Assembly (NCBI GenBank): GCA_964349305.1
Contig: CAYGFS010000002.1
Coordinates: forward strand, 425 to 64,424
Length of the DNA: 64,000 nt
Direction of reading: 5' to 3'
DNA from: an uncultured Pseudomonadales bacterium
Lineage (GTDB): Bacteria; Patescibacteriota; Microgenomatia; UBA1400; UBA12108
Part shown: positions 31,415 through 43,974 of the stretch, piece by piece
How the letters are laid out: each line of letters starts with the position of its first letter
Position numbering within the stretch: position 1 is the stretch's first letter
Program-made: the position numbers and the translations under genes
The notes under the pieces: generated by a model
The model's input: the letters and a program-made list of their open reading frames with translations, nothing else
What the model was told of the DNA's origin: nothing
Databases searched by the model: none

Positions 31415-32770
31415 ATGGATATTATTTCTACCTGGTCGGCCGTACTGGCAGAACTAGAGCTTTCGGTGTCGAGCGTGTATTACCCCACTTGGATTAAGCC
31501 ACTCTCGATCGAGTCTTTAGAAAAAATTGCTGATGATAAACAGTTGGTAACCATCCTGTGTCCGTCTAGTTATCACCAAACCATGGTCAGTCAGCGCTAC
31601 CAAGGGCAAATCCAGCGGAGTTTAGAGCGGATTTCTGGCCTGAAAACTGAAGTAAATTACGTCATTGGGAAGGACCCAACAAACACAATAAAACAAGCAC
31701 CAACACCATTGTTTGACCCCCCTTCGCTACCAGGTGGCTTCGGAGGGGCAGAGGGGCACCACAATCTCAATCCAAGACTGACTTTCGAGACCTACGTGGT
31801 GGGGGGGTCGAACAACTTTGCTTATGCAGCGGCACAAGGTGCGGCCAAAACTCCCGGCACGCGGCACAACCCTCTATTTATCTACGGCGGGGTAGGGCTG
31901 GGGAAAACTCATTTGATGCAGGCGATAGGACACGCAATTTATAAAGACCATCCTGATTGGAATATTATGTACATCTCGGCCGAGACTTTTGGTAGCGATT
32001 TGATTGCAAGCCTACAAAACAAGAAAACCCCAGCATTTAAGAAAAAATATCGCGCCCCCAATGTGCTCCTGATCGATGATATCCAGTTTATAGCCGGCAA
32101 AGAGTATATTCAGGAGGAGTTTTTCCATACTTTTAATGAACTCTATATGTCACAGCGTCAAATAGTCTTGACCTCGGACAAGTCTCCTCAAGAAATTGTG
32201 AAGCTCGAGGAGCGCCTATCCTCGAGGTTTATGGGGGGGTTAATGGTGGACATCCAGTCGCCGGACTTTGAAACCAGAGTGGCGATTCTAACTCAAAAGT
32301 GCGAAGCCTTAAGTCTAGATATTCCCGCCGAAGCCATTTCGCTGATTGCAGAGCGCACTACGACTAATATCCGCGAACTTGAAGGGGCACTACAGGGGAT
32401 ACTTACCAAGGCCCTCCCATCGGGAGGCGAGATCACCAGTGACATGGTGAGGGAGTTTTTTGGGGCGGAGAGGGAGCGGAGGACGCAGCGGATCAGACCC
32501 AATAGTGTGATTACCAAGACTGCTCAATATTTTTCGTTTAAACCGACCGAACTGACGGGGTCAAGTAGAAAAGCTCCACTGACTGCCGCCCGCCATACAG
32601 CCATGTACCTCTTGTACAACGATCTGCGACTACCATATGAACAGGTGGGGCGACTGTTTGGCGGACGTGATCATACAACCGTCATCCACGGCGTCGAGAA
32701 AATTACGGATAAACTCAAAACCGATCCAGGTATGGCAAAAATAATTGCAGACATAAAGCACGGGCTCTAA
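31415..32770 (+). CDS. dnaA: chromosomal replication initiator DnaA
   Basis: AAA+ Walker A GGVGLGKTHLMQAIGH. Walker B LLIDDIQF. Sensor motifs. C-terminal DNA-binding domain (...AARHTAMYLLYNDLRLPYEQVGRLFGGRDHTTVIHG). Confidence 0.95.
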   Translation: MDIISTWSAVLAELELSVSSVYYPTWIKPLSIESLEKIADDKQLVTILCPSSYHQTMVSQRYQGQIQRSLERISGLKTEVNYVIGKDPTNTIKQAPTPLFDPPSLPGGFGGAEGHHNLNPRLTFETYVVGGSNNFAYAAAQGAAKTPGTRHNPLFIYGGVGLGKTHLMQAIGHAIYKDHPDWNIMYISAETFGSDLIASLQNKKTPAFKKKYRAPNVLLIDDIQFIAGKEYIQEEFFHTFNELYMSQRQIVLTSDKSPQEIVKLEERLSSRFMGGLMVDIQSPDFETRVAILTQKCEALSLDIPAEAISLIAERTTTNIRELEGALQGILTKALPSGGEITSDMVREFFGAERERRTQRIRPNSVITKTAQYFSFKPTELTGSSRKAPLTAARHTAMYLLYNDLRLPYEQVGRLFGGRDHTTVIHGVEKITDKLKTDPGMAKIIADIKHGL

Positions 32771-33004
32771 ATATGTGGATAAAGATGGGGATAAGGCGGT
32801 GGAGAAGCGCGGGAGAAGTATTTGGGCGAGTGGGGAAAAGTGGAAAGAAGAGAGTTGTCCCCAATAAGGATGAGTTGTCCACAAAGTTATCCACAGCGTT
32901 TTCCCCGCGCGTAGCAGAGATTTATCCGACAATCCACCGGCTCTACTACTATTACAATCTTTAATTAAGATATATTATTAACAGCAGTAAGGGGGCAACC
33001 TAAA
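32771..33004. promoter_or_regulatory. candidate oriC: DnaA-box cluster plus AT-rich unwinding tract in the dnaA-dnaN spacer
   Basis: TGTGGATAA at 32774-32782. TTGTCCACA at 32876-32884. TTATCCACA at 32887-32895. Weaker TTATCCGAC at 32922. Then the AT-rich tract CTACTACTATTACAATCTTTAATTAAGATATATTATTAAC. A further box TGTGGATAA at 31388-31396 lies upstream of dnaA. Confidence 0.6.
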
Positions 33005-34102
33005 ATGAAAATAGAAGTTTTACAAGAACAGCTTTTAAATGGTTTGGGAATTGTAGGGAGAGCGGTGGCGAGTAGAGCACAGTTGCCCGTACTGTCACAC
33101 ATCTTAATTGAAGCAAGAACCGATGGACTAACTTTGTCGGCCACCGATCTAGAGATCGGGATGAAAGTTAAAGTAGCTGCCAAAGTAGACATTGAGGGTA
33201 AGGTGGCGGTACCAGCCAAGATGTTTGAGGAGTTTTTGAGTTCCTTGAACCCAGGTAAAGTGAAGCTTGAACTGAAGGGCGAGGCACTGATCCTATCGGC
33301 ACCGGGATACAGCGGCAAATTCCAGACGATTAGTGCGGAAGAATTTCCAGCGATTGCTTCGATTACTCCCGAAGCGGAGATTTGTACAATAGACTCTAGT
33401 ATTTTAACTAAAGCGGTAGAGAGAGTGGTGTTTGCGAGCGCAAAAGATAGTTTGCGCCCGGTACTGACTGGAGTGTTGTGGGAAGTGGGGAAGAAAAAAG
33501 TGCGGCTAGTGGCCACCGACGGGTTTAGACTTGCGGTAGAGGAGATACAAGTTGATACTAAAGTTGAACAAATTAATTTGCTCGTGCCGTCTAGGGTGGT
33601 GATGGAAGTGGTGCGGCTGGCGGGTTCGGGATCGATCTCCATAGGACACCTTAAAGACACTAATCAAATCTCGTTTGTGGTGGGTGAAACTCAGATAGTC
33701 TCACAGCTGCTTTCAGGGAACTTCCCTGATTACGGGAAGATTTTACCCAAGGAATTTAGTACGGAAATATCGGTAAATAAAGACGAACTACTACAGGCCG
33801 TCAAAGCGGCGCACATCTTTGCCAGAGACAACTCTAATATGGTGAAGTGGCAAATAGGGGAGGGCAAAACAGTATTGGTTTCTAGCTCGCCGGAGCGGGG
33901 AGAATGCGTCGTAGAAGTACCCACCACACTAACGGGCGATCCGCTAGAGATTATTTTTAACGCGAAATATGTAATGGATTATCTCTCAATCACTGAGGGG
34001 GAGACGATCACGCTCGGGATGGGGACAAAATTGTCGCCGGGGATGTTCCGCGACACGAAGCGCGCAAGTGGGCAGTATGTGGTGATGCCGATTAACGCGT
34101 AA
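33005..34102 (+). CDS. dnaN: DNA polymerase III beta sliding clamp
   Basis: MKIEVLQEQLLNGLGIVGRAV... three-domain clamp pattern, 365 aa, directly downstream of dnaA. Confidence 0.9.
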   Translation: MKIEVLQEQLLNGLGIVGRAVASRAQLPVLSHILIEARTDGLTLSATDLEIGMKVKVAAKVDIEGKVAVPAKMFEEFLSSLNPGKVKLELKGEALILSAPGYSGKFQTISAEEFPAIASITPEAEICTIDSSILTKAVERVVFASAKDSLRPVLTGVLWEVGKKKVRLVATDGFRLAVEEIQVDTKVEQINLLVPSRVVMEVVRLAGSGSISIGHLKDTNQISFVVGETQIVSQLLSGNFPDYGKILPKEFSTEISVNKDELLQAVKAAHIFARDNSNMVKWQIGEGKTVLVSSSPERGECVVEVPTTLTGDPLEIIFNAKYVMDYLSITEGETITLGMGTKLSPGMFRDTKRASGQYVVMPINA

Positions 34103-34249: not shown

Positions 34250-37200
34250 CTATTTTATGGGATCAGTAGTGGCTGGTTGTTGGAAAATCGGTCTCCCAGA
34301 CTGCTGTGCGTCTGGAGGCATTTCTCGGGTACTGTCATGCTCGATGTGCTGTGATTCGGTGGGTGCGGCGACAGTGGTCGCAATCGGTTCGACGGTGGGG
34401 GCGGCGGCGGGTTGAGGTGGGGTGAGAGCGGAGGCGCGGGACTGGCTGGCGACCAGCTTGTCGGCGAAGGCCCTTTGGTGGTCCAGAGTCTCCTGAGGGT
34501 TCGTGGTAATGAGACTGTGTTCTTCAGGTGAGGCGACTACTTTCATAGCCACGTGGTTTTGGCCGGCGAAGAAGAGGGCCTCGCCAACTTCGGCAGTCAG
34601 CAAGAGGTGGCGTTCTCCCTGGGAGAGGAAGAACGTGGTCGCGAGCTTTTCGATGGCGCTACTGCTTTGTTTCATGAGAACCTGGAGCGAAGAGTTGCTG
34701 ACGATAGCTTTACCGTGATCGCTCTTTAAGAAATCTTCCACGTCTTGAGTGATAGTGGTCAGGCCCAGGAAATATTTACGAGCCCGCTTGGCGATGCCAT
34801 AGAGGAAGGTGGCGGAGTCCTCGGATTTCATGAGATACCACGCCTCATCGACGACCAGGAGACGGCGCTTGAGATCCCTTTTGACCTTGGTCCAAATGTA
34901 GTCGAGAATGATAAAAATGGCAGTGGGGCGGAGCTCGTCGGTCAAGTTTTTGATACCAAAGACGGTGAGCTGATTGCCAAAATTGACATTGGACTTTTGG
35001 GAGAAAATTCCCTGGAAAGAACCCTTAACATATTTTTCGAGCCGGTCGGCCAGACCACGAGCAACTGCCTCTTCCATACCATTTAAGACCTTGTAGAGAT
35101 CTTCCATGAGCGGGGGCTCGAGCTTGTGGGTGGTGGCGTCGCGATTAATGCCTTTCATCTGGTAGGTCATAACCAGGGCGCGATCGAGGAGGGCTTCTTC
35201 TTGGGGATTCATGTCTCCCATCATAATTTTGAGGAGGGAATGGAGAGAAATAATTTTCATGGCCAGCTCGTTTTCGTCGGGCTCGGCCATTTGAGGAAGC
35301 TCAAAAGGATTGATGCGGTTGGGAGAACTAAAAGAGAAGTCAATATAAGTACCGCCGATGGCGTCGGAGAGTTTGCGATACTCGTCTTCGGGATCGATGA
35401 CGATGACTTCGGTGTCGAAAAGGAGGGAGCGCAAGATTTCCAGCTTGACCATATAAGAGTTGTGGACAAAAATCCCCCCTTGGCCAGCCAGGAAAACCTT
35501 GTTTTTAACCTGCAAATCATACACATATGGGTTGTTGTAGGGAACGAGAACTATAGAGGTGATGGGGTCCCAGATGATTTGACTATTGGCTAGTTGATTA
35601 AGATTGGACAAGACAGTGTCGGTCTCTAGAGGAATCTTTAGATTTAGTTTTTTTACTTGCTGGAGACAGGTCTTGATGTGTTTAGAGAGCTCTTTTGACG
35701 ATGGATTGTATTTCCCATTTTTAATATTTATAAAGTTTTGACCTGGTGAAATTTTGTAAGGTAGAAATATGGTTTCGTGGAGTTTTTTGAACAGTGGAGC
35801 AAGCCCAGGAATAAATTCAACATTGGTGTTTGCGGAGATATTTAGTGTGTCTTGGATAATTGTATTTAATTTACCTTGTTTACCCCCATGTACAAAAGAG
35901 ATGTTTTTAGCAAAATTTAGCAGGTTGTTTTGGCCCGAAATTGAGACTCTCCAATAGGGCTGCTTGATCATGGTCGAGTTGGAGGTCCTTTTTTGTGTGG
36001 GATGGATGCGTGCGTGAATATCAAAACGATTGAAAAGTAGACAGAGAGAGTTAATAAGTGATTTGGACTTTGAGACGGCGGTAACCTGTCTGGCCTCTAC
36101 TCCTCCATCTCCATCGAGATATCCGCCAATCATATTGGCAAGACATTGATCGTCGAGGTTAATGGCCCAGGAGGGGAATCGCTTAGTTGAAGCAGTGTGT
36201 CCAACCCCCATTGACTCAATGACGTGTTTAAAAATAGACGAACTAACTCTAATGTCGGTTGGAGTAATAAAATATGGGAAATTTATATCTTTTAATATAT
36301 TTTCTACCTTATCCCGAATTTCTTGATCTCTGTTTGTAATAATAACAACCGCTGCGGCAGTAGACCCTTCAGCGATATAGAGCCCAAGAAGCCAGGCTAG
36401 ATCTGGAGTAATAGTCAGGGTTGTTGGTAGAAGATGATTGGTGCTGTTTTGAATTTGTATTTGAGCTGTTTGGGGGAGTGGTGAACTAACTCTCGATTTT
36501 AATGAATCATAAAGAGCGATGGGGAAAGCTCTACCACCAAAATATTTTTCAGCGTAAGGGCCAGTATATCCAGAGTTTTTTATCCAATCTTTAGCTCCGA
36601 CAATATGAACCCTCATGTCCTTTGCGAGAGCGTCTAATAAATTTAGAGTCGTCGGCTTTCCTTTAACCGGAATAGATCTTGCAATTGGCATATATTCCCC
36701 AACTTTGGCGTTTTTGGCAATGATAGCTTTGATTGCTCCATTCTCGAGTGTTAAGATCTGGTGATCTGGAGTGACAGTTATGGATCTACCAGACTTTGTG
36801 GTGATATGAAGAAGTTCTTTATAGGGATTGAGTTTACGCGCAACTACTTCAACCTTGCTCCACTGGGGTACTAGGTCCGCGTTGTAACTCAGAACTTCTA
36901 ACTCAGGATTTGTAATAGCTTCGCTTTCACCCACCCTGGTTATTGATTTTGAATCTTTGAAGATTTGGTCGACGTATTGACCAATCTTTATCTCAGAAAC
37001 AGTCTCTTTTTGTCGGATCAGGGTGGGCTCGTCGTATCCTAAGCATTTACCGGAACCCGACTTGGCGAAGACCACCATATTGGCATTTTCGAGCGTGAAA
37101 CGATCAAAAACGACGAGCGAGTCATTGTGTTCGTTGATGCCATACATGAGACCCTCATTGGCGGTGAGCTCAGAGCTGGTGAAGGGGAAGGTGGTGGCAA

Positions 37201-37858
37201 GACTGGTCGTGTCCATGTTGCGGTTCATTTTGAGCTTGTCGAGGCCGGTGGGGAGAGTAGTTTTGAAGCCATCCTCGATTTGGAGGCTGGCGGTTTTGGC
37301 CACGATTAGCAGCGCGCCGAGAGCGGACTTGATGTGATTGGTGACGCGATCAAGAATGTCTTTTTTGTCATCCCGGATGGTGATGTAGAGCCCAAACTGG
37401 AAAAAGCGCTCGGCCCCCTTGGCAAGCTGTTCTTGGAGCGAGCGAGCGTCTTCGAGCTTGACCTGCGTGTCGATGTTGATAATGCGGCCGCGCTGAATAT
37501 CTCCCTGGAGCTCGGCCTCCATTTCGGCGATTTTGCGGCGGAGATCTTCGATGACCCCCTTACCGTCGACAGGATAAATAAACATAGAAATAGAGAGGGA
37601 GTGGGGGAAGTTGATCAGAGGACTAAGCCAGTTGGCGTTGACGAAACGAGGGTATCCTGCCACAAAGAGGGTGCGGTAGTAAGTGTCGTTGATTTTGATG
37701 TCGGAGAAATCCACCTCGATGGCTTCGGGGGCAATAATATCTTTGACATTGGTGGTGCCCTGTGACAAAACGGAGACAGAAGGAGAGACTTGGGGTCCAG
37801 AGTCTTTGGGGTCGGTTTTTTTGCCACCAAAAAGAGATGGCAGGTTTAGTTTGGGCAT
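34250..37858 (-). CDS. virB4: T4SS ATPase VirB4/TrbE-like, interrupted in the P-loop by a 529-aa intein
   Basis: Extein N-part ends ...MVVFAKSGSGK (Walker A). Extein resumes SYMVKLEILRSLLFDTEVIVIDPEDEYRKL... with the VirB4 C-terminal ATPase region (...RRLLVVDEAWYLM..., ...GLTTITQDVEDF...). Mature protein ~673 aa. Confidence 0.8.
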   Translation of the reverse strand: MPKLNLPSLFGGKKTDPKDSGPQVSPSVSVLSQGTTNVKDIIAPEAIEVDFSDIKINDTYYRTLFVAGYPRFVNANWLSPLINFPHSLSISMFIYPVDGKGVIEDLRRKIAEMEAELQGDIQRGRIINIDTQVKLEDARSLQEQLAKGAERFFQFGLYITIRDDKKDILDRVTNHIKSALGALLIVAKTASLQIEDGFKTTLPTGLDKLKMNRNMDTTSLATTFPFTSSELTANEGLMYGINEHNDSLVVFDRFTLENANMVVFAKSGSGKCLGYDEPTLIRQKETVSEIKIGQYVDQIFKDSKSITRVGESEAITNPELEVLSYNADLVPQWSKVEVVARKLNPYKELLHITTKSGRSITVTPDHQILTLENGAIKAIIAKNAKVGEYMPIARSIPVKGKPTTLNLLDALAKDMRVHIVGAKDWIKNSGYTGPYAEKYFGGRAFPIALYDSLKSRVSSPLPQTAQIQIQNSTNHLLPTTLTITPDLAWLLGLYIAEGSTAAAVVIITNRDQEIRDKVENILKDINFPYFITPTDIRVSSSIFKHVIESMGVGHTASTKRFPSWAINLDDQCLANMIGGYLDGDGGVEARQVTAVSKSKSLINSLCLLFNRFDIHARIHPTQKRTSNSTMIKQPYWRVSISGQNNLLNFAKNISFVHGGKQGKLNTIIQDTLNISANTNVEFIPGLAPLFKKLHETIFLPYKISPGQNFINIKNGKYNPSSKELSKHIKTCLQQVKKLNLKIPLETDTVLSNLNQLANSQIIWDPITSIVLVPYNNPYVYDLQVKNKVFLAGQGGIFVHNSYMVKLEILRSLLFDTEVIVIDPEDEYRKLSDAIGGTYIDFSFSSPNRINPFELPQMAEPDENELAMKIISLHSLLKIMMGDMNPQEEALLDRALVMTYQMKGINRDATTHKLEPPLMEDLYKVLNGMEEAVARGLADRLEKYVKGSFQGIFSQKSNVNFGNQLTVFGIKNLTDELRPTAIFIILDYIWTKVKRDLKRRLLVVDEAWYLMKSEDSATFLYGIAKRARKYFLGLTTITQDVEDFLKSDHGKAIVSNSSLQVLMKQSSSAIEKLATTFFLSQGERHLLLTAEVGEALFFAGQNHVAMKVVASPEEHSLITTNPQETLDHQRAFADKLVASQSRASALTPPQPAAAPTVEPIATTVAAPTESQHIEHDSTREMPPDAQQSGRPIFQQPATTDPIK
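35459..37045 (-). mobile_element. intein (Hint domain + LAGLIDADG homing endonuclease) within virB4
   Basis: Begins with Cys after GSGK (CLGYDEPTLI, block A). Block B ...TPDHQIL. LAGLIDADG motifs LLGLYIAEGS and IGGYLDGDGG. Ends VYDLQVKNKVFLAGQGGIFVHN, followed by the +1 Ser. Confidence 0.85.
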
Positions 37859-37943: not shown

Positions 37944-38582
37944 TTATTTAGAGATGTTGGGGGCGACGATGGCCTGTTCGTAATCGGAGGCGGTGGTAAA
38001 CTTTTGACCCTTGACCGTGGAGTTGTAGAAACTGTGGAAGAGCTTCATGAGGCTCTGGGAGTTGATTTGCTGGGCCGTCAGACCAATTCTGGCCAGCTGT
38101 TTGATAATGTGGTCGCGCTTGGGCTCGAGATCGGCCTTGGCTTTTAAGATTAGATCCTCGGTGATCTCGACTTTACCAGAGAGGGTGACGAGCTGGTAAG
38201 AAACAACGAGATAGAATTTTTTATCGAGCACGTTTTGCTCGGTAATCGTGGTTTCAATAAAACTCCGATAGGCCTTCATGCGCTCTTTGAGGATTTCGTC
38301 TTTGAGTTTTTTCTCCTGGGCGACTAAAAGTTCGAGATAGGCGCTAATATCTTTTTTCTCTGATTTGATGACGATTTGAATAGGGAAAGAGAGAGAGTTG
38401 AGGAGGCCAGCGTAGGAATAAATGGTGGCGTCTTGCTCTTCTTCTGACAGAAGACCAAAGTTGATGGCGGAGGCTTGGATGACGATGCTACAAACACCAC
38501 TTTTGAGGATCACTAAATCGTCGCGAATGGTTTCGATGTCGAGATGATCTTGGGTGGTGGCGACAATAATTGAGTCGGACAT
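37944..38582 (-). CDS. hypothetical soluble protein, T4SS-associated (212 aa)
   Basis: Immediately upstream of virB4 in the same orientation. Has its own copy of the conserved promoter element. No TM helix and no known motif. Confidence 0.45.
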   Translation of the reverse strand: MSDSIIVATTQDHLDIETIRDDLVILKSGVCSIVIQASAINFGLLSEEEQDATIYSYAGLLNSLSFPIQIVIKSEKKDISAYLELLVAQEKKLKDEILKERMKAYRSFIETTITEQNVLDKKFYLVVSYQLVTLSGKVEITEDLILKAKADLEPKRDHIIKQLARIGLTAQQINSQSLMKLFHSFYNSTVKGQKFTTASDYEQAIVAPNISK

Positions 38583-38777: not shown

Positions 38778-39788
38778 TTACTGGGAGCGCAGCTCGATGG
38801 GGGACAGAATTGTGTTGTTGATGGTGATTTGTTGGGGGGCAAAATTTAAATTATCCTTATCTACTTCGATGAGATAGGTGCCGGGAGAGAGGGGGGTAGA
38901 GGTATAAAACTGACCCAGAGAATTAGTTTTCATGGCTCTGGCGGGGATACCACCATCTTCAACAATCTGAACAATGGCGTTTTCGACCAATTTACTGTCG
39001 CGATCGACGACTACTCCCGTCACGAGATTGGGGAACCTGGGAGAGGCGGGAAGGGTGATTTTTTTGGGACTAGAAATGATCGGCGAGACCTTGGTGGTGC
39101 TAGCGGCGGTTGGGGCGCTAAAAATAAGACTAGGAGCGGGAGTGGGTTCGGATTTACTGGGAGGTGGTGTCGTGGCGGAGGATCCAACTATAGTATTTTG
39201 AGTTTTGGGAATATTTAAAATAACATCCGATACGGCCTCTACTGGTTTGAGTTTGCGGACGGCGATGCTTGGCTTTTCAACCTCCTCGATTTTTTGGACG
39301 ACTATTTTTTGTTCTTGTGGGGGGGTGGGGGGAGTGGTGGTAAAGAGTGAGTCGAGAGATTTAATCAAATTGGTCTCGGACTCGGTGAGGTCGGAGACGG
39401 CTTTGTTGGTACTGGCGGCAACGGGAGCCTTGATAGTTTTAGTAACAGTATTAACCACATCGGGAGCATGAGCCTCAAACAGAAAAAGGTGGGGGATTTT
39501 GTTGGTTTTTTGCCAGATGAATCTAGTGGGAGCATAAATAGCCTTGATAAAATTGATGATCCACTGGTCGAGAGGGCGGTCTTCGATGGGAAAGAAAGCC
39601 AGTCCGGCCCCAAAAAGAATGGAGAGAATAATGAGAGGCCATTTGATGATAAAAATGAGATTGCTGGCGAAGAAAAGATAGGCCAGCCCCAGTCCAATAC
39701 AAAGCTCGAGAAACTGCTTGAGGGTCATGTCTCCAACTAGGCGGAATTGATACTGAGTGACGTTTTGGGGGATGGGATGCTGCTGCAT
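38778..39788 (-). CDS. VirB3/PrgI-like two-TM membrane protein fused to an S/T/P-rich linker and a C-terminal beta-sandwich (carboxypeptidase-regulatory-like) domain
   Basis: N-terminal 100 aa carry two TM helices (LELCIGLGLAYLFFASNLIFII; WPLIILSILFGAGLAFF). Low-complexity PTPP/S/T linker. C-terminal ...GVVVDRDSKLVENAIVQIVEDGG...GTYLIEVDKDNLNF... Sits upstream of virB4. Confidence 0.4.
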   Translation of the reverse strand: MQQHPIPQNVTQYQFRLVGDMTLKQFLELCIGLGLAYLFFASNLIFIIKWPLIILSILFGAGLAFFPIEDRPLDQWIINFIKAIYAPTRFIWQKTNKIPHLFLFEAHAPDVVNTVTKTIKAPVAASTNKAVSDLTESETNLIKSLDSLFTTTPPTPPQEQKIVVQKIEEVEKPSIAVRKLKPVEAVSDVILNIPKTQNTIVGSSATTPPPSKSEPTPAPSLIFSAPTAASTTKVSPIISSPKKITLPASPRFPNLVTGVVVDRDSKLVENAIVQIVEDGGIPARAMKTNSLGQFYTSTPLSPGTYLIEVDKDNLNFAPQQITINNTILSPIELRSQ

Positions 39789-39859: not shown

Positions 39860-40147
39860 TTAACTGTTGGCGTATTGGTGGAGGATGGAACCGGCCAGGG
39901 TTTGATATTTTAATCCTAGTTTAGCGGCCTTATCACGCAATGCCTGTTTAGTGCTATATGAAACACGAATATTAATATTCTCGTCTTTTTTCATCAATCT
40001 GAGAGTATTTTCGGCGGCCTTTTTAAGAACTGCTAGTTCTTTTTTGGAAACTGGCTTTAGAGATGGATCGTCTGGTAGGGACCTTTCAATTTCTTGCTCA
40101 TACTCGTCAAGAACGAGATTTTTGAATGGATCGAACTTTTTTTTCAT
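39860..40147 (-). CDS. brnA: BrnA-family antitoxin
   Basis: C-terminal ...NINIRVSYSTKQALRDKAAKLGLKYQTLAGSILHQYA matches the BrnA (CopG-like) pattern. 4-bp overlap with the upstream brnT. Downstream hairpin CCCGATAATCGGG. Confidence 0.65.
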   Translation of the reverse strand: MKKKFDPFKNLVLDEYEQEIERSLPDDPSLKPVSKKELAVLKKAAENTLRLMKKDENINIRVSYSTKQALRDKAAKLGLKYQTLAGSILHQYANS

Positions 40148-40462: not shown

Positions 40463-41098
40463 TTATGGTTTGAGAGACGTCGAAGGAGCGATGACATATT
40501 TGTGGGCAGTGGCATCGCCGCCGTTTTGGGTGACCCAAGATTTAACTTCTTCTATCACCTCCGACGAGGAAGCCGTCTGGTTTTTGAGCGCGATTTCGAG
40601 AGTCATGGGGGCAGAATAGACGACTCGGAAACCTGGTCGATTGAGGGGAAGCTTTTGACCTAGCGGATAATCTCGAGCTAACTCAGTTTTCATGTTTTCA
40701 ATCAATATGGGGTCGGTTTGACTGGACTGAGTAACAAAAACTAGAGTATAAATGGTTTTGTTGTTCCAGGTAGTTGTGGTTGTATATTGAGTCGATGGTT
40801 GGAGTGGGCGCTTGGGAGCGAGGGTAATGACGTTTTCTTTGGTTTGGGATATATCAAAGGGAGTTTCTGGAGAGAGGGAAAACTGGAGCTCCGATACGAC
40901 AATAGGGTCTTTAAACGTATATGTGAGCGGATTGAAGATGGGATAGTTTTGAGTGTTGGATTCTGGATTAGTGGTCGAAACAACCGGCGTTTTAGCCCGA
41001 ATACTCATAATTGTTACTATTACTAGAACCACAACAGTTAAGCCTCCGAGAATTTTGAGTGCCAGGATTTGTTTGGGAGTAAAAATTGTGGTGATCAT
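40463..41098 (-). CDS. bitopic membrane protein (N-terminal TM + ~180-aa external domain); VirB8/PrgL-like candidate
   Basis: Single TM (ILALKILGGLTVVVLVIVTIMSI). ATGA start/stop overlap with the upstream CHAP-hydrolase gene. Assignment rests on topology and context only. Confidence 0.35.
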   Translation of the reverse strand: MITTIFTPKQILALKILGGLTVVVLVIVTIMSIRAKTPVVSTTNPESNTQNYPIFNPLTYTFKDPIVVSELQFSLSPETPFDISQTKENVITLAPKRPLQPSTQYTTTTTWNNKTIYTLVFVTQSSQTDPILIENMKTELARDYPLGQKLPLNRPGFRVVYSAPMTLEIALKNQTASSSEVIEEVKSWVTQNGGDATAHKYVIAPSTSLKP

Positions 41099-43974
41099 AA
41101 TTTCTTCAAAAATCCTGCCATATTGGTTTTGGGTAAACAGTTGTTTTGTGCGACACACCCATTACAAACCTGATTGGCGTCGGTCAAGCAGATGAGGGCT
41201 CCGGCGTCACTAGTCATTATACCAATGTGGCCGGGGGCACCACCGCTGCAGGTTCCCGACGAATTGAAAACAATGGGGTCTCCAGGAGTGGCACCAACAG
41301 TCCCCTGGACGAAACGCCAGCCTGGGGCCACGTTGCCAATATAACTGCAGGCATTGGCTCCTTGAAGAGACCCACCGGCGCAGGCAATAGCGGCTTGGAC
41401 AAACCCAACACATTGTAGATAAGTGAAGCTACTGGCCGAGCGCTGGATCAGACTAATTGATTCTGGGGAGATGGCTTTGGCGGCGAGACAAGAGAGGCCC
41501 TGAGCAATATTGCTGCTCGTGACGCTCTGTCCATAACATTCGGCAAGATATTTGGCGAGACAATTGGCGCAAGAGGCTACGCTGCTACCTGCCGACTTAA
41601 TTTCTGTACCCACCTCGGCACCCGCTGAATCATCGTCGCAGAGGAGTTCGGTTGCGACCTGTTGGAGCGCGGATCCGGCGTCGAGGCGAATTGTGTTCAC
41701 AAGATCACTAATATTGTGGTTATTAACAAAAATCATAATCCCAATAATTGTTAGCGAAAGGAGAATTGGTTGGAGGACCGAGAGCATGAGTAGCGAAATG
41801 GTTGATAAAACAGTTGCAAATGCGGCTGGAATAGCGAGGAACACCGCGCCAATAGTTAACCCTATTTTGGTAACGGCACCACGGAAATCAGCACTACCTA
41901 AATAGTTTTTAATGAAATTCCAACCTAATTTAATTAAGTCAAAAACCATTAATACTCCAAGGACTACAGAGAAAGCTGAAGTTATCCCACCCGCAAGACC
42001 AATCAAGGCAGCTCCAGCTTTTTCACCTAGTCTTGCTAGGGCCTTTCCTCCTATTTGGAGGAGTAAGCGAGTGGCAGTACGGCTAGCTGAGACAGAGGCA
42101 TATTTAAAGGCTGACCCAGCTCCGAGTTTGGTGGCGATGGCCGCAGATCTTTCAAGTGCCCATTTTGTGCTTGATCCCCAGGCCGACCTGAATGTTTCAA
42201 AGAGAGCACCATTAACCGTAAAGTCACCTTGCTTATATTGGTTGAGATTCCAGTGGACAAATTTACCTAGAGGGTTTTTCCAGGACGAAGTACGGGCAAT
42301 AGCCTTGAGGGTTGTGACCTTTTTCCACTCGTCGATGCGATCATAGATCCAGGGAACAATGCGAAAGAGGGGGATTTGAGTTTTTCCTATCCTGATTGTA
42401 AAATTTTCGGCTAATTTGTCATACCACTCAACGGTTGCACGAACCCCCTTGTTCCAAGGCAAGTTTTCGTCAAACTCGACCCATTTGTCAAAGAATTTGG
42501 TTTTGAGTTCATATAGGTGAGACCTATTATTTTCAACCCAACGACCAAAGCGAGTGCGGTTGATGAGGCTTTTTTCGTCGAAATCAAGAAATGAATAGGC
42601 ACCGAGATGGTTTTCGTTTTCTCTCAAGCGGCGCGACCAATGAATTTCGAGGTCTTCGGTTTTTTGTTTGTATTCGGAGGTATCTAGTTTGTTTTTATAT
42701 TCGCCTGCTAGCCTATCTTTCTCAGATTGGTACTCTGTCGATAATTTTTCTTTTTCTATTTTTAAATCAGCTTCGGACTTTTCTGTTTTGAAGGGATTGA
42801 TGCCGCGGCGCAATAGATTCCGCTCGCCTAGGGTGAGATGGTGTGACCCAACAAGAACTGACAATTCGTTTTGTCGATATTCGATGGCAAAATCGAGACC
42901 AGATTTTTGCAGTTCGTTTTTAATTGCTTGTAATTGGGTGGTATCAGCATTGATGCGCGAACCAGCCAGATCTACAATTTCGTCGCTTGTGAGCTGGCGA
43001 TTTGTGCTGGCATTGATGGTCTGAATTAGAGCCTTGGCAAGTTTCTTTTTTTCAGTATCGCTAGAAATTGGGAGAATTTGTTGAATTTGCCTATAAATTT
43101 CGTATTCCGTAGCTACCACATCGTTGGTGGCGGCCAAGGCTCTATTTTTGAAATCGTCGATTTCAGCTAGCCTTATGCCGTCTTGAAGGAGTTGCTGTTC
43201 AACGCTTTGGGTAAATTTATTGAGATTAGCTGAAATCTCTTTGTCACCTAGAAGATTAAGATAGGCGGCCTGTTCTGGATATGAGTTACTAATAATTTGA
43301 GTAAGTTTGTGAGAGACTGCTTGGGTGGCCATGTCTTCATCATTCGAATAAGCGTGGGCGGCACCACGAAGCTCTGTAATATTTTGGATAATGATTTGGG
43401 CGAGGACTTGTTGAGATAGATCACGATTTCCAACCGGGACACCAGGAGGAAGAATTTTTTGAAATAAAGCTGGAGAGACACCAAGATTGGAGGCTCGCAG
43501 GAGCTGAGAATATAGTTTGTTGTAGTCATCAATGGCCTTGCCTGCGTCAAATTTTGTCCTTGGAGCTCCAGATTGTTTTTTTTGAGCTTCTCTATAAAGC
43601 GTTAGATTTTGTTGTCTGGCGGTTGTGAATAGTTTGTTGGGATCCCCAATCCGATCTCGATAGATTTCGCTAGCAATAGTGGCGAATTGTTCATACGATA
43701 CTTTGCGCATGAGCTTGATGAGCTGGCCCTTGTCTTTGGTGTAGAGGTGATTGTTGTCTTCTAGCCAGTCCAAAACAAGCTTGGCAGCATCGTCTAGCTT
43801 GATAAATTCTTGAGGCTTGCCGAAGGGAGTGGGCAGTGGGATACCACGCGATCCTTTGCCGAGGCGGGATTGGACTGCCAGGCCAGGGAGCAAATATTCT
43901 TCGATTAAATATTTGTTGACCCCATTATCTTTGATGTAGCTAAAACTTTGGAACTGAGTGGTGTCTATGGACAT
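41095..43974 (-). CDS. T4SS-associated cell-wall hydrolase with C-terminal CHAP domain (PrgK/TcpG-like), ~600-aa N-terminal cytoplasmic domain and a central TM bundle
   Basis: CHAP signature ...QCVGFVQAAIACAG...GNVAPGW......GDPIVFNS.....GHIGIM (catalytic Cys/His spacing). 3-4 TM helices at aa ~640-750. Confidence 0.6.
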   Translation of the reverse strand: MSIDTTQFQSFSYIKDNGVNKYLIEEYLLPGLAVQSRLGKGSRGIPLPTPFGKPQEFIKLDDAAKLVLDWLEDNNHLYTKDKGQLIKLMRKVSYEQFATIASEIYRDRIGDPNKLFTTARQQNLTLYREAQKKQSGAPRTKFDAGKAIDDYNKLYSQLLRASNLGVSPALFQKILPPGVPVGNRDLSQQVLAQIIIQNITELRGAAHAYSNDEDMATQAVSHKLTQIISNSYPEQAAYLNLLGDKEISANLNKFTQSVEQQLLQDGIRLAEIDDFKNRALAATNDVVATEYEIYRQIQQILPISSDTEKKKLAKALIQTINASTNRQLTSDEIVDLAGSRINADTTQLQAIKNELQKSGLDFAIEYRQNELSVLVGSHHLTLGERNLLRRGINPFKTEKSEADLKIEKEKLSTEYQSEKDRLAGEYKNKLDTSEYKQKTEDLEIHWSRRLRENENHLGAYSFLDFDEKSLINRTRFGRWVENNRSHLYELKTKFFDKWVEFDENLPWNKGVRATVEWYDKLAENFTIRIGKTQIPLFRIVPWIYDRIDEWKKVTTLKAIARTSSWKNPLGKFVHWNLNQYKQGDFTVNGALFETFRSAWGSSTKWALERSAAIATKLGAGSAFKYASVSASRTATRLLLQIGGKALARLGEKAGAALIGLAGGITSAFSVVLGVLMVFDLIKLGWNFIKNYLGSADFRGAVTKIGLTIGAVFLAIPAAFATVLSTISLLMLSVLQPILLSLTIIGIMIFVNNHNISDLVNTIRLDAGSALQQVATELLCDDDSAGAEVGTEIKSAGSSVASCANCLAKYLAECYGQSVTSSNIAQGLSCLAAKAISPESISLIQRSASSFTYLQCVGFVQAAIACAGGSLQGANACSYIGNVAPGWRFVQGTVGATPGDPIVFNSSGTCSGGAPGHIGIMTSDAGALICLTDANQVCNGCVAQNNCLPKTNMAGFLKKL

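Follow-up and report, generated by a model that had tools for sequence, protein, structure and literature searches.

The window analysed in this work, a stretch of 64,000 nucleotides from contig CAYGFS010000002.1 of GenBank assembly GCA_964349305.1 (positions 425 to 64,424 of the forward strand), contains beside dnaN a gene for VirB4, the ATPase of a type IV secretion system (T4SS), whose nucleotide-binding P-loop is interrupted by an insert of 529 residues. With high confidence, this insert is a class-1 intein with a two-motif LAGLIDADG endonuclease that sits in the Walker A motif of VirB4 and is competent for splicing, and its endonuclease is probably still active. As a whole, the element is very likely to be a canonical intein that both splices and homes, hosted by a chromosomal VirB4 of the MPF-FATA/CD1110 type. 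The organism is an uncultured, ultra-small Microgenomates (Woesebacteria-like) bacterium belonging to the Candidate Phyla Radiation (CPR) with a chromosomal T4SS. A VirB4 intein as such is already known, the one in the window being an ordinary example.

The precursor gene and its parts are located in the window as follows, residues being numbered either along the open reading frame (ORF) or along the intein.

34250..37858, minus strand: VirB4 precursor ORF (N-extein, intein and C-extein), 1202 residues plus stop, uninterrupted
37046..37858, minus strand: N-extein, residues 1-271, ending with the first part of Walker A
37046..37066, minus strand: the part of Walker A held in the N-extein, AKSGSGK
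35459..37045, minus strand: class-1 intein, 529 residues (Cys1 to His-Asn), ORF residues 272-800
36641..37045, minus strand: N-terminal Hint (splicing) lobe, intein residues 1-135, holding blocks A (Cys1) and B
36752..36778, minus strand: block B, TVTPDHQIL (T92, H95)
35846..36406, minus strand: LAGLIDADG homing-endonuclease core, Pfam LAGLIDADG_3
36362..36391, minus strand: LAGLIDADG motif 1, LLGLYIAEGS, intein residues 219-228, catalytic E226
36101..36130, minus strand: LAGLIDADG motif 2, IGGYLDGDGG, intein residues 306-315, catalytic D313
35459..35578, minus strand: C-terminal Hint lobe, intein residues 490-529, with block F VYDL (D510) and block G GIFVHN (H528-N529)
34250..35458, minus strand: C-extein, residues 801-1202 plus stop, opening with the +1 Ser and carrying P-loop_TraG and AAA_10 domains
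34838..34861, minus strand: Walker B, LLVVDEAW, residues 1000-1007, intact

Residue 1 of the intein is Cys272 (codon 37043-37045), directly after FAKSGSGK, and the other boundary is formed by Asn800 (codon 35459-35461), followed by Ser801 (35456-35458) and YMVKLE. The insertion point is found between Lys271 and the Ser of Walker A, AKSGSGK/S (the slash marking here and below the point of insertion), and upon removal of the intein the +1 Ser801 completes Walker A as GKS. The limits given in the initial annotation for the insert (35459-37045, 529 residues, in an ORF of 1202) are exact to the base, and the motifs quoted there are all present, namely CLGYDEPTLI (intein residues 1-10), LLGLYIAEGS, IGGYLDGDGG and VYDLQVKNKVFLAGQGGIFVHN (508-529). 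Its placement of the split in Walker A, after GSGK, is likewise right, while the motif itself, written there as GxSGSGK, begins with Ala.

Profile searches agree, far beyond what chance would produce, in identifying the insert as an intein with a LAGLIDADG endonuclease, as initially proposed. The Pfam models Intein_splicing (E=2e-15) and LAGLIDADG_3 (E=2.7e-16, with 3.4e-17 for the endonuclease core) both exceed their gathering scores, and so do, relative to their cutoffs, the NCBIfam models for the two intein termini, TIGR01445 intein_Nterm (41.2 bits versus 24.5, spanning intein residues 1-99) and TIGR01443 intein_Cterm (17.5 bits versus 15.6). Intein portions within NCBIfam models of intein-containing archaeal proteins are matched as well, the best full-length match being to the intein of archaeal RNA polymerase A'' (NF011491 region 77-543; 175.9 bits over intein residues 2-529), whose host protein is unrelated and for which the match covers the model's intein part only, far below its 783-bit cutoff. 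When the PDB was searched with the intein sequence, inteins only were retrieved (TFIIB mini-inteins 5o9i/5o9j, PI-PkoII 2cw7, PhoCDC21, KlbA and TvoVMA), with the N-terminal Hint lobe aligning to 5o9i and identities of at most about 25-33%.

The fold was modelled with AlphaFold2 on an alignment of 35 VirB4 inteins, yielding a mean predicted local distance difference test score (pLDDT) of 92.2 and a predicted template modelling score (pTM) of 0.90. Comparison of this model with the PDB by Foldseek gave as best match PI-PkoII, the Pol-2 intein of Thermococcus kodakarensis (2cw7; E=1e-30, TM scores of 0.71/0.70), followed by the TliVMA intein, PI-PfuI and PI-SceI. The intein structures matched (2cw7, 7qss, 1dq3, 5o9i, 4o1s and 4e2t) reflect the presence of the Hint fold that the initial annotation had expected of the insert. 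PI-PkoII is the best structural counterpart over the whole 529 residues and shares with the VirB4 intein an architecture of Hint domain, two-motif LAGLIDADG endonuclease and an extra DNA-recognition or linker region, while differing from it in being archaeal, in its DNA polymerase host, in its target and in most of its sequence (20% identity). The endonuclease core alone matches I-DmoI and I-Tsp061I, and its modelled order of secondary-structure elements fits the pseudo-dimeric alpha-beta-beta-alpha-beta-beta-alpha LAGLIDADG fold.

All residues required for class-1 splicing are present: Cys1, the TxxH of block B, the block-F Asp, the terminal His-Asn and the +1 Ser. Across the 35 aligned VirB4 inteins, position 1 is always S or C, and T92, D94 and H95 of block B, D510 of block F, H528 and N529 are invariant. 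The same applies to the catalytic E226, whereas D313 is kept in 34 of them, the position of K326 being also conserved. In all 84 VirB4 inteins that were mapped, Ser occupies the +1 position. A bacterial intein-like (BIL) element or another Hint domain was considered and rejected, since the insert contains an endonuclease and ends in a canonical HN/S terminus; its position in the host's most conserved motif, instead of the variable regions of non-conserved proteins typical for BIL domains, which often lack the +1 nucleophile, also contradicts such an assignment.

Once the intein is removed in silico, the host is clearly recognized as VirB4, as stated initially. The spliced product of 673 residues matches in a single stretch, residues 27-576, the NCBIfam model NF045971 for the VirB4-like conjugal transfer ATPase of the CD1110 family, with 400.5 bits against a cutoff of 325, while the precursor scores 374.9 bits in two stretches; the exteins thus align contiguously to VirB4. 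TIGR00929 (VirB4_CagE) reaches merely 119.7 bits against a cutoff of 643, which points to the monoderm (MPF-FATA-like) type and not to the proteobacterial VirB4 subfamily. More than 100 close homologues without intein were found, and the N-extein is 97% identical to intein-free homologues over conserved columns. At the junction, the closest intein-free relative compared at the DNA level (locus L001, which encodes protein P0018) has the sequence ENANMVVFAKSGSGK/SYMVKLEILRSLLFD, which for 15 residues to either side is the same, as protein, as the junction predicted after ligation, the DNA of its empty site being GTCTTTGCCAAGTCTGGCTCAGGCAAG/TCTTACATGGTCAAGCTCGAAATT. Excision would, as the initial annotation had it, restore the P-loop.

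The C-terminal ~100 residues of VirB4 (34250-34540, minus strand) form a low-complexity tail rich in Pro, Ala, Thr and Gln (ALTPPQPAAAPTVEPIATTVAAP...), which lies outside all domain models and differs in length among close homologues (proteins of 603-695 residues).

On these grounds, virB4 would be translated as a precursor of 1202 residues that, with its P-loop broken by 529 residues, should not bind ATP. Splicing would proceed by an N-S acyl shift at Cys1, aided by Thr92 and His95 of block B, then by transesterification onto the +1 Ser801, cyclisation of Asn529 aided by His528 and by Asp510 of block F, and finally an O-N shift. The expected products are a VirB4 of 673 residues, in which Lys271 is ligated to Ser801 (P-loop AKSGSGKS), and a free intein of 529 residues, the latter predicted to behave as a monomeric two-motif LAGLIDADG endonuclease with Glu226 and Asp313 as catalytic residues. 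This enzyme would cut intein-free virB4 across the insertion point, at about GGxAAR/TCxTAYATGGT, and repair from an intein-bearing copy would then spread the element (homing). Splicing, cleavage and the target sequence are here inferred. It is a reasonable view, backed by indirect evidence, that VirB4 needs splicing for its ATPase function and that virB4 alleles free of intein are the target of the endonuclease.

Composition, distribution and divergence bear on the mobility of the element. Within a single ORF, the G+C content of the intein is 0.41 (0.39 at third codon positions, GC3), while that of the exteins is 0.52-0.53 (GC3 0.64-0.66), and the intein-bearing locus L002 displays the same contrast. 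When the intein-free P0018 was used as query, only two of the 120 closest clusters at 90% identity contained the intein. The Cys1 intein of 529 residues has four carriers, for all of which the nearest neighbours by extein identity are intein-free (97% for P0001, the protein of the window, 98.5% for P0002, 97% for P0003 and 93.6% for P0004). Their four inteins form one clan with 100/100 bootstrap and align without any gap. The exteins of L002 and L005 are 94-96% identical, yet their inteins only 73%, no closer to each other than the intein of the window is to that of L005 (75%). Ratios of nonsynonymous to synonymous substitution rates (dN/dS) for the intein range from 0.09 to 0.17, splicing lobes and endonuclease region being alike, as under purifying selection. 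These features fit a mobile element that is kept functional and whose moves, or gains and losses, are not coupled to its host gene.

Several considerations weigh against this view. Synonymous divergence (dS) is near saturation, 1.2 to >3, so that the dN/dS values of the intein are rough. The inteins diverge in an order that roughly tracks that of their hosts, P0004 being the most distant, and old vertical inheritance with many precise losses thus stands as an alternative to repeated invasion; a precise loss would in turn also need recombination with an intein-free allele. In addition, (i) conserved catalytic residues would be no proof that the endonuclease recognises present-day alleles, (ii) splicing and cleavage are predicted here from sequence and a structural model, and (iii) the homing view assumes a route for DNA exchange between CPR cells.

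According to the strongest competing explanation, the intein splices but its endonuclease is inactive, the element being a vertically inherited passenger late in its homing cycle that is retained because imprecise loss destroys the P-loop. In its favour, the order of divergence of the four inteins is roughly host-like, the rarity of the intein in the closest clade (the two of 120 clusters mentioned) is what would be expected during loss, and a related intein, that of P0121 at locus L004, may be truncated. Against it, the two catalytic acidic residues, like the position of K326, are kept throughout the 35 inteins, the dN/dS of the endonuclease is not above that of the splicing lobes, the four copies lack indels and their carriers are scattered among intein-free alleles of 94-98.5% identity. 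We consider this explanation unlikely, albeit the most probable among the alternatives.

Regarding P0121 (L004 4806-6277), its N-extein is ~97% identical to that of the window in protein and 85% in DNA, its intein is ~70% identical, and the ORF stops after ~180 intein residues. This stop lies 116 nucleotides short of where the contig ends, at a coverage of 2.3x, and decay of the intein and sequencing error are for that reason indistinguishable.

Searches beyond the closest relatives complete the picture of the distribution. In a library of representatives searched with P0018 as query, 4 of ~150 representatives at 50% identity bear an intein at the same site, a figure that is no estimate of prevalence because clustering hides mixed clusters, and no insertion of 120 residues or more was mapped at other positions of VirB4 among these ~150. 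The best 80 loci in a scan of GTDB species representatives are all intein-free, which likewise does not measure prevalence, as contiguous matches rank first. By tblastn, the intein found no relative in 72,556 plasmid records, only matches of 25-28% identity in phages (to helicases and terminases that bear inteins, in the endonuclease domain) and one match of 38 residues in IMG/VR, these three collections giving no evidence of a reservoir in plasmids or phages. A word-index search of 5.8 billion proteins with the intein alone returned 3 matches, bringing P0121 to light, and missed its own parent P0001, its negatives for intein-like queries being hence unreliable.

A second alternative would have the intein co-opted as a conditional switch, gated for instance by redox state or temperature, that keeps the T4SS ATPase inactive until splicing is triggered. 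With the intein in the P-loop, activity would strictly require splicing, the clustering of inteins in P-loops has been argued to hint at such roles (Novikova et al. 2016, PMC4760082), Cys1 has replaced the common Ser1 at this site several times independently, and related inteins are very common in Microgenomates VirB4. Nevertheless, nearly all the closest relatives have the same locus without the intein, which indicates that it is dispensable; composition and patchy occurrence agree with a selfish element, no regulatory feature came to light, and the majority of inteins, having Ser1, cannot be redox-gated at position 1. Such a role is improbable for the intein of the window.

Even less probable is a dead insertion that does not splice, either making this virB4 copy a pseudogene or leaving a VirB4 that functions while still containing the insert. 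Splicing itself is predicted, and the efficiency of the Cys1, +1 Ser and -1 Lys combination is unpredictable from sequence. Against this, the frame of 1202 codons is open, the residues needed for splicing are all intact and do not vary among relatives, strong purifying selection acts on the exteins (dN/dS 0.06-0.14) and the intein-bearing copy is the sole virB4 at the conserved dnaN-adjacent locus. Moreover, in NTPases of the Walker A type a P-loop split by 529 residues could form no nucleotide-binding site, and the unspliced protein would accordingly lack one. Finally, a chimeric contig joining a VirB4 gene to an unrelated intein-bearing gene during assembly or binning, for which the metagenomic origin of the window and an intein G+C content unlike that of the flanks might speak, has a negligible chance of being the explanation, as the identical 1202-residue protein (P0001) is found on two contigs in public data, three further independent assemblies have the same 529-residue intein at the same codon, and the frame is precisely preserved with junctions that are canonical intein termini.

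The intein is no isolated case, having in public data hundreds of relatives that had drawn no comment. Among the 120 best matches to the full-length protein, a sample in which inteins are over-represented owing to the one in the query, 84 VirB4 proteins (1156-1387 residues) have a P-loop intein, of 529-668 residues. Named sources include Candidatus Collier-, Chisholm-, Shapiro-, Gottesman- and Daviesbacteria, and some public entries for CPR VirB4 are already labelled 'intein/homing endonuclease'. In 71 of the 84, the intein occupies the same position as in the window (site A, GxGK/S...HN/SY), mostly with Ser1, and with Cys1 in several separate branches. The other 13 are inserted five residues upstream in the same Walker A (site B, FGK/S...HN/SGGGKS), the carriers being P0083, P0088, P0089, P0095, P0097, P0100, P0104, P0106, P0110, P0112-P0114 and P0116. 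Site-B inteins form a clan with 100/100 bootstrap, while their hosts do not (0/50) and are interleaved with site-A hosts, so that the phylogeny of the inteins follows insertion site and not host.

Comparison, between L089 (519-4178) and L090 (1001-4780), of the DNA at one occupied site A (...GTTGGCAAA/TCT...) and one occupied site B (...TTCGGCAAA/TCC...) revealed the common core GGCAAA/TC, which reflects the internal GK-S repeat of the GKSGGGKS P-loop. In this single pair, and with an unrooted intein tree (outgroup inteins are only 23-25% identical), the shared core suggests that an ectopic move may have taken place between the neighbouring look-alike GK/S sites, its direction from A to B being suggested only by the far wider occurrence of site A. 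Tentatively, and with less confidence than doubt, the P-loop inteins of Microgenomates VirB4 can be proposed to constitute a large, actively homing and undescribed family in which one move from GxGK/S to FGK/SGGGKS, 15 nucleotides upstream, took place through GGCAAA/TC and was followed by spread across host lineages. That this spread depends on DNA exchange mediated by the invaded T4SS itself is speculative.

With regard to previous reports, the statement in the initial annotation that no VirB4 intein was known to it is superseded: five inteins of VirB4 (COG3451) from Firmicutes and Proteobacteria are listed, in the category 'mobilome and secretion systems', by Novikova et al. (2016, Mol Biol Evol 33:783, PMC4760082, Table 3), and the 84 or more related CPR inteins in public data likewise leave no novelty to a VirB4 P-loop intein as such. 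The comparison with the former holds at the level of host family (T4SS VirB4 ATPase) and element type, whereas their hosts are Firmicutes and Proteobacteria and that of the window is a T4SS that is chromosomal and origin-proximal, in a CPR/Microgenomates bacterium. That ATPases carry inteins in their P-loops is textbook knowledge (DnaB site b, MCM site a, RFC-S site a, RecA/RadA and VMA; PMC4760082). Those inteins resemble the present one in Walker A insertion, class 1, frequent LAGLIDADG endonucleases and dependence of host activity on splicing; the host protein differs, being here a secretion ATPase and not a replication or recombination protein.

The same host system is described in a study of Patescibacteria T4SSs, which reports chromosomal clusters, usually lacking a relaxase, with proximity to dnaA/dnaN in Microgenomatia (Quinonero-Coronel et al. 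2025, Microb Genom 11:001409, PMC12102498); the MPF-FATA-like VirB4 by dnaA/dnaN and its PrgI-like neighbour are common to both, and inteins are nowhere mentioned in that work. Homing in CPR bacteria, with patchy, host-incongruent distributions and evidence for ectopic moves, is known for LAGLIDADG enzymes from introns in rRNA (Tsurumaki et al. 2024, J Bacteriol, PMC11270868), which differ in being free-standing, mostly single-domain and encoded in group-I-like introns of rRNA genes and not in inteins. No description of VirB4 inteins in CPR bacteria was found by full-text searches of open-access papers, and their abundance in Microgenomates and the use of two adjacent P-loop sites seem to be unreported.

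The genes surrounding virB4 are consistent with this assignment of the host system:

31415..32770, plus strand: dnaA, adjoining the virB4 region
33005..34102, plus strand: dnaN, tail to tail with virB4
37944..38582, minus strand: ORF of 212 residues, T4SS neighbour, whose homologues carry PF26593 (TraC-like)
38778..39788, minus strand: PrgI/VirB3-like membrane protein, upstream of virB4 and on the same strand

With dnaA and dnaN directly beside virB4, the locus is chromosomal and origin-proximal. The order dnaA-dnaN, virB4, 212-residue ORF and PrgI is kept in the intein-free L001 and in the intein-bearing L002, L005 and L006/L007, and the GTDB species representatives nearest to P0018 (~92% identity) are assigned to Candidatus Woesebacteria or the Microgenomates group. 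Elsewhere in the window are found genes for YidC, ribosomal protein L25, leucyl-tRNA synthetase and transporters of the ATP-binding cassette (ABC) and major facilitator superfamily (MFS) types. Pfam scans of 30 ORFs of the window detected neither a relaxase nor VirD4, and an ORF of 95 residues (39860..40147, minus strand) shows a weak, sub-threshold match to the relaxosome accessory protein NikA. In the PrgI-like protein, the PrgI (VirB3-like) domain is fused, through a linker rich in Pro, Thr and Ser, to a C-terminal CarboxypepD_reg-like domain.

Four large ORFs beside the T4SS genes gave no Pfam match at E<=0.001:

41095-43974, minus strand: 959 residues
44023-47427, plus strand: 1134 residues
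47424-48986, minus strand: 520 residues
49551-52433, minus strand: 960 residues

They may encode divergent components of the CPR T4SS, belonging to its channel or to the cell wall; the homologue of one of them in L001 has a weak CHAP match. GC skew is positive (0.09-0.32) in all 2-kb bins of the window (1-64000), with no change of sign at dnaA/dnaN (31415-34102), where an origin and a switch would be expected, and scans of the window for Rfam families and tRNAs gave no matches. Ten loci on contigs of species-representative metagenome-assembled genomes (MAGs) (L009-L013, L017, L046, L051, L075 and L080) contain a virB4 of Microgenomates type (60-93% identical) under unrelated titles, such as 'uncultured Pseudomonadales/Gammaproteobacteria', 'Bathyarchaeia archaeon', 'Clostridia', 'Nevskiaceae' and 'Limisphaerales'; these records are probably mislabelled or contaminated.

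In practical terms, the 'hypothetical/ATP-binding protein' of 1202 residues should be annotated as an intein-containing VirB4, and surveys of T4SSs in CPR genomes that rely on gene length or on coverage of hidden Markov models (HMMs) may mis-score such genes. Most T4SS clusters of Patescibacteria are reported to be without relaxase (PMC12102498), and the system has been described, in work cited there, as essential for the epibiotic growth of cultured Saccharibacteria, which makes an obligatory splicing step in the motor ATPase relevant to those expressing or studying these proteins. Current concepts of intein biology are left unchanged by the VirB4 intein family, which nonetheless, through its hundreds of alleles, its two sites spaced by five residues within a single P-loop and its recurrent switches between Ser1 and Cys1, lends itself as a natural data set to studies of the homing cycle and of ectopic change of site in uncultured bacteria.

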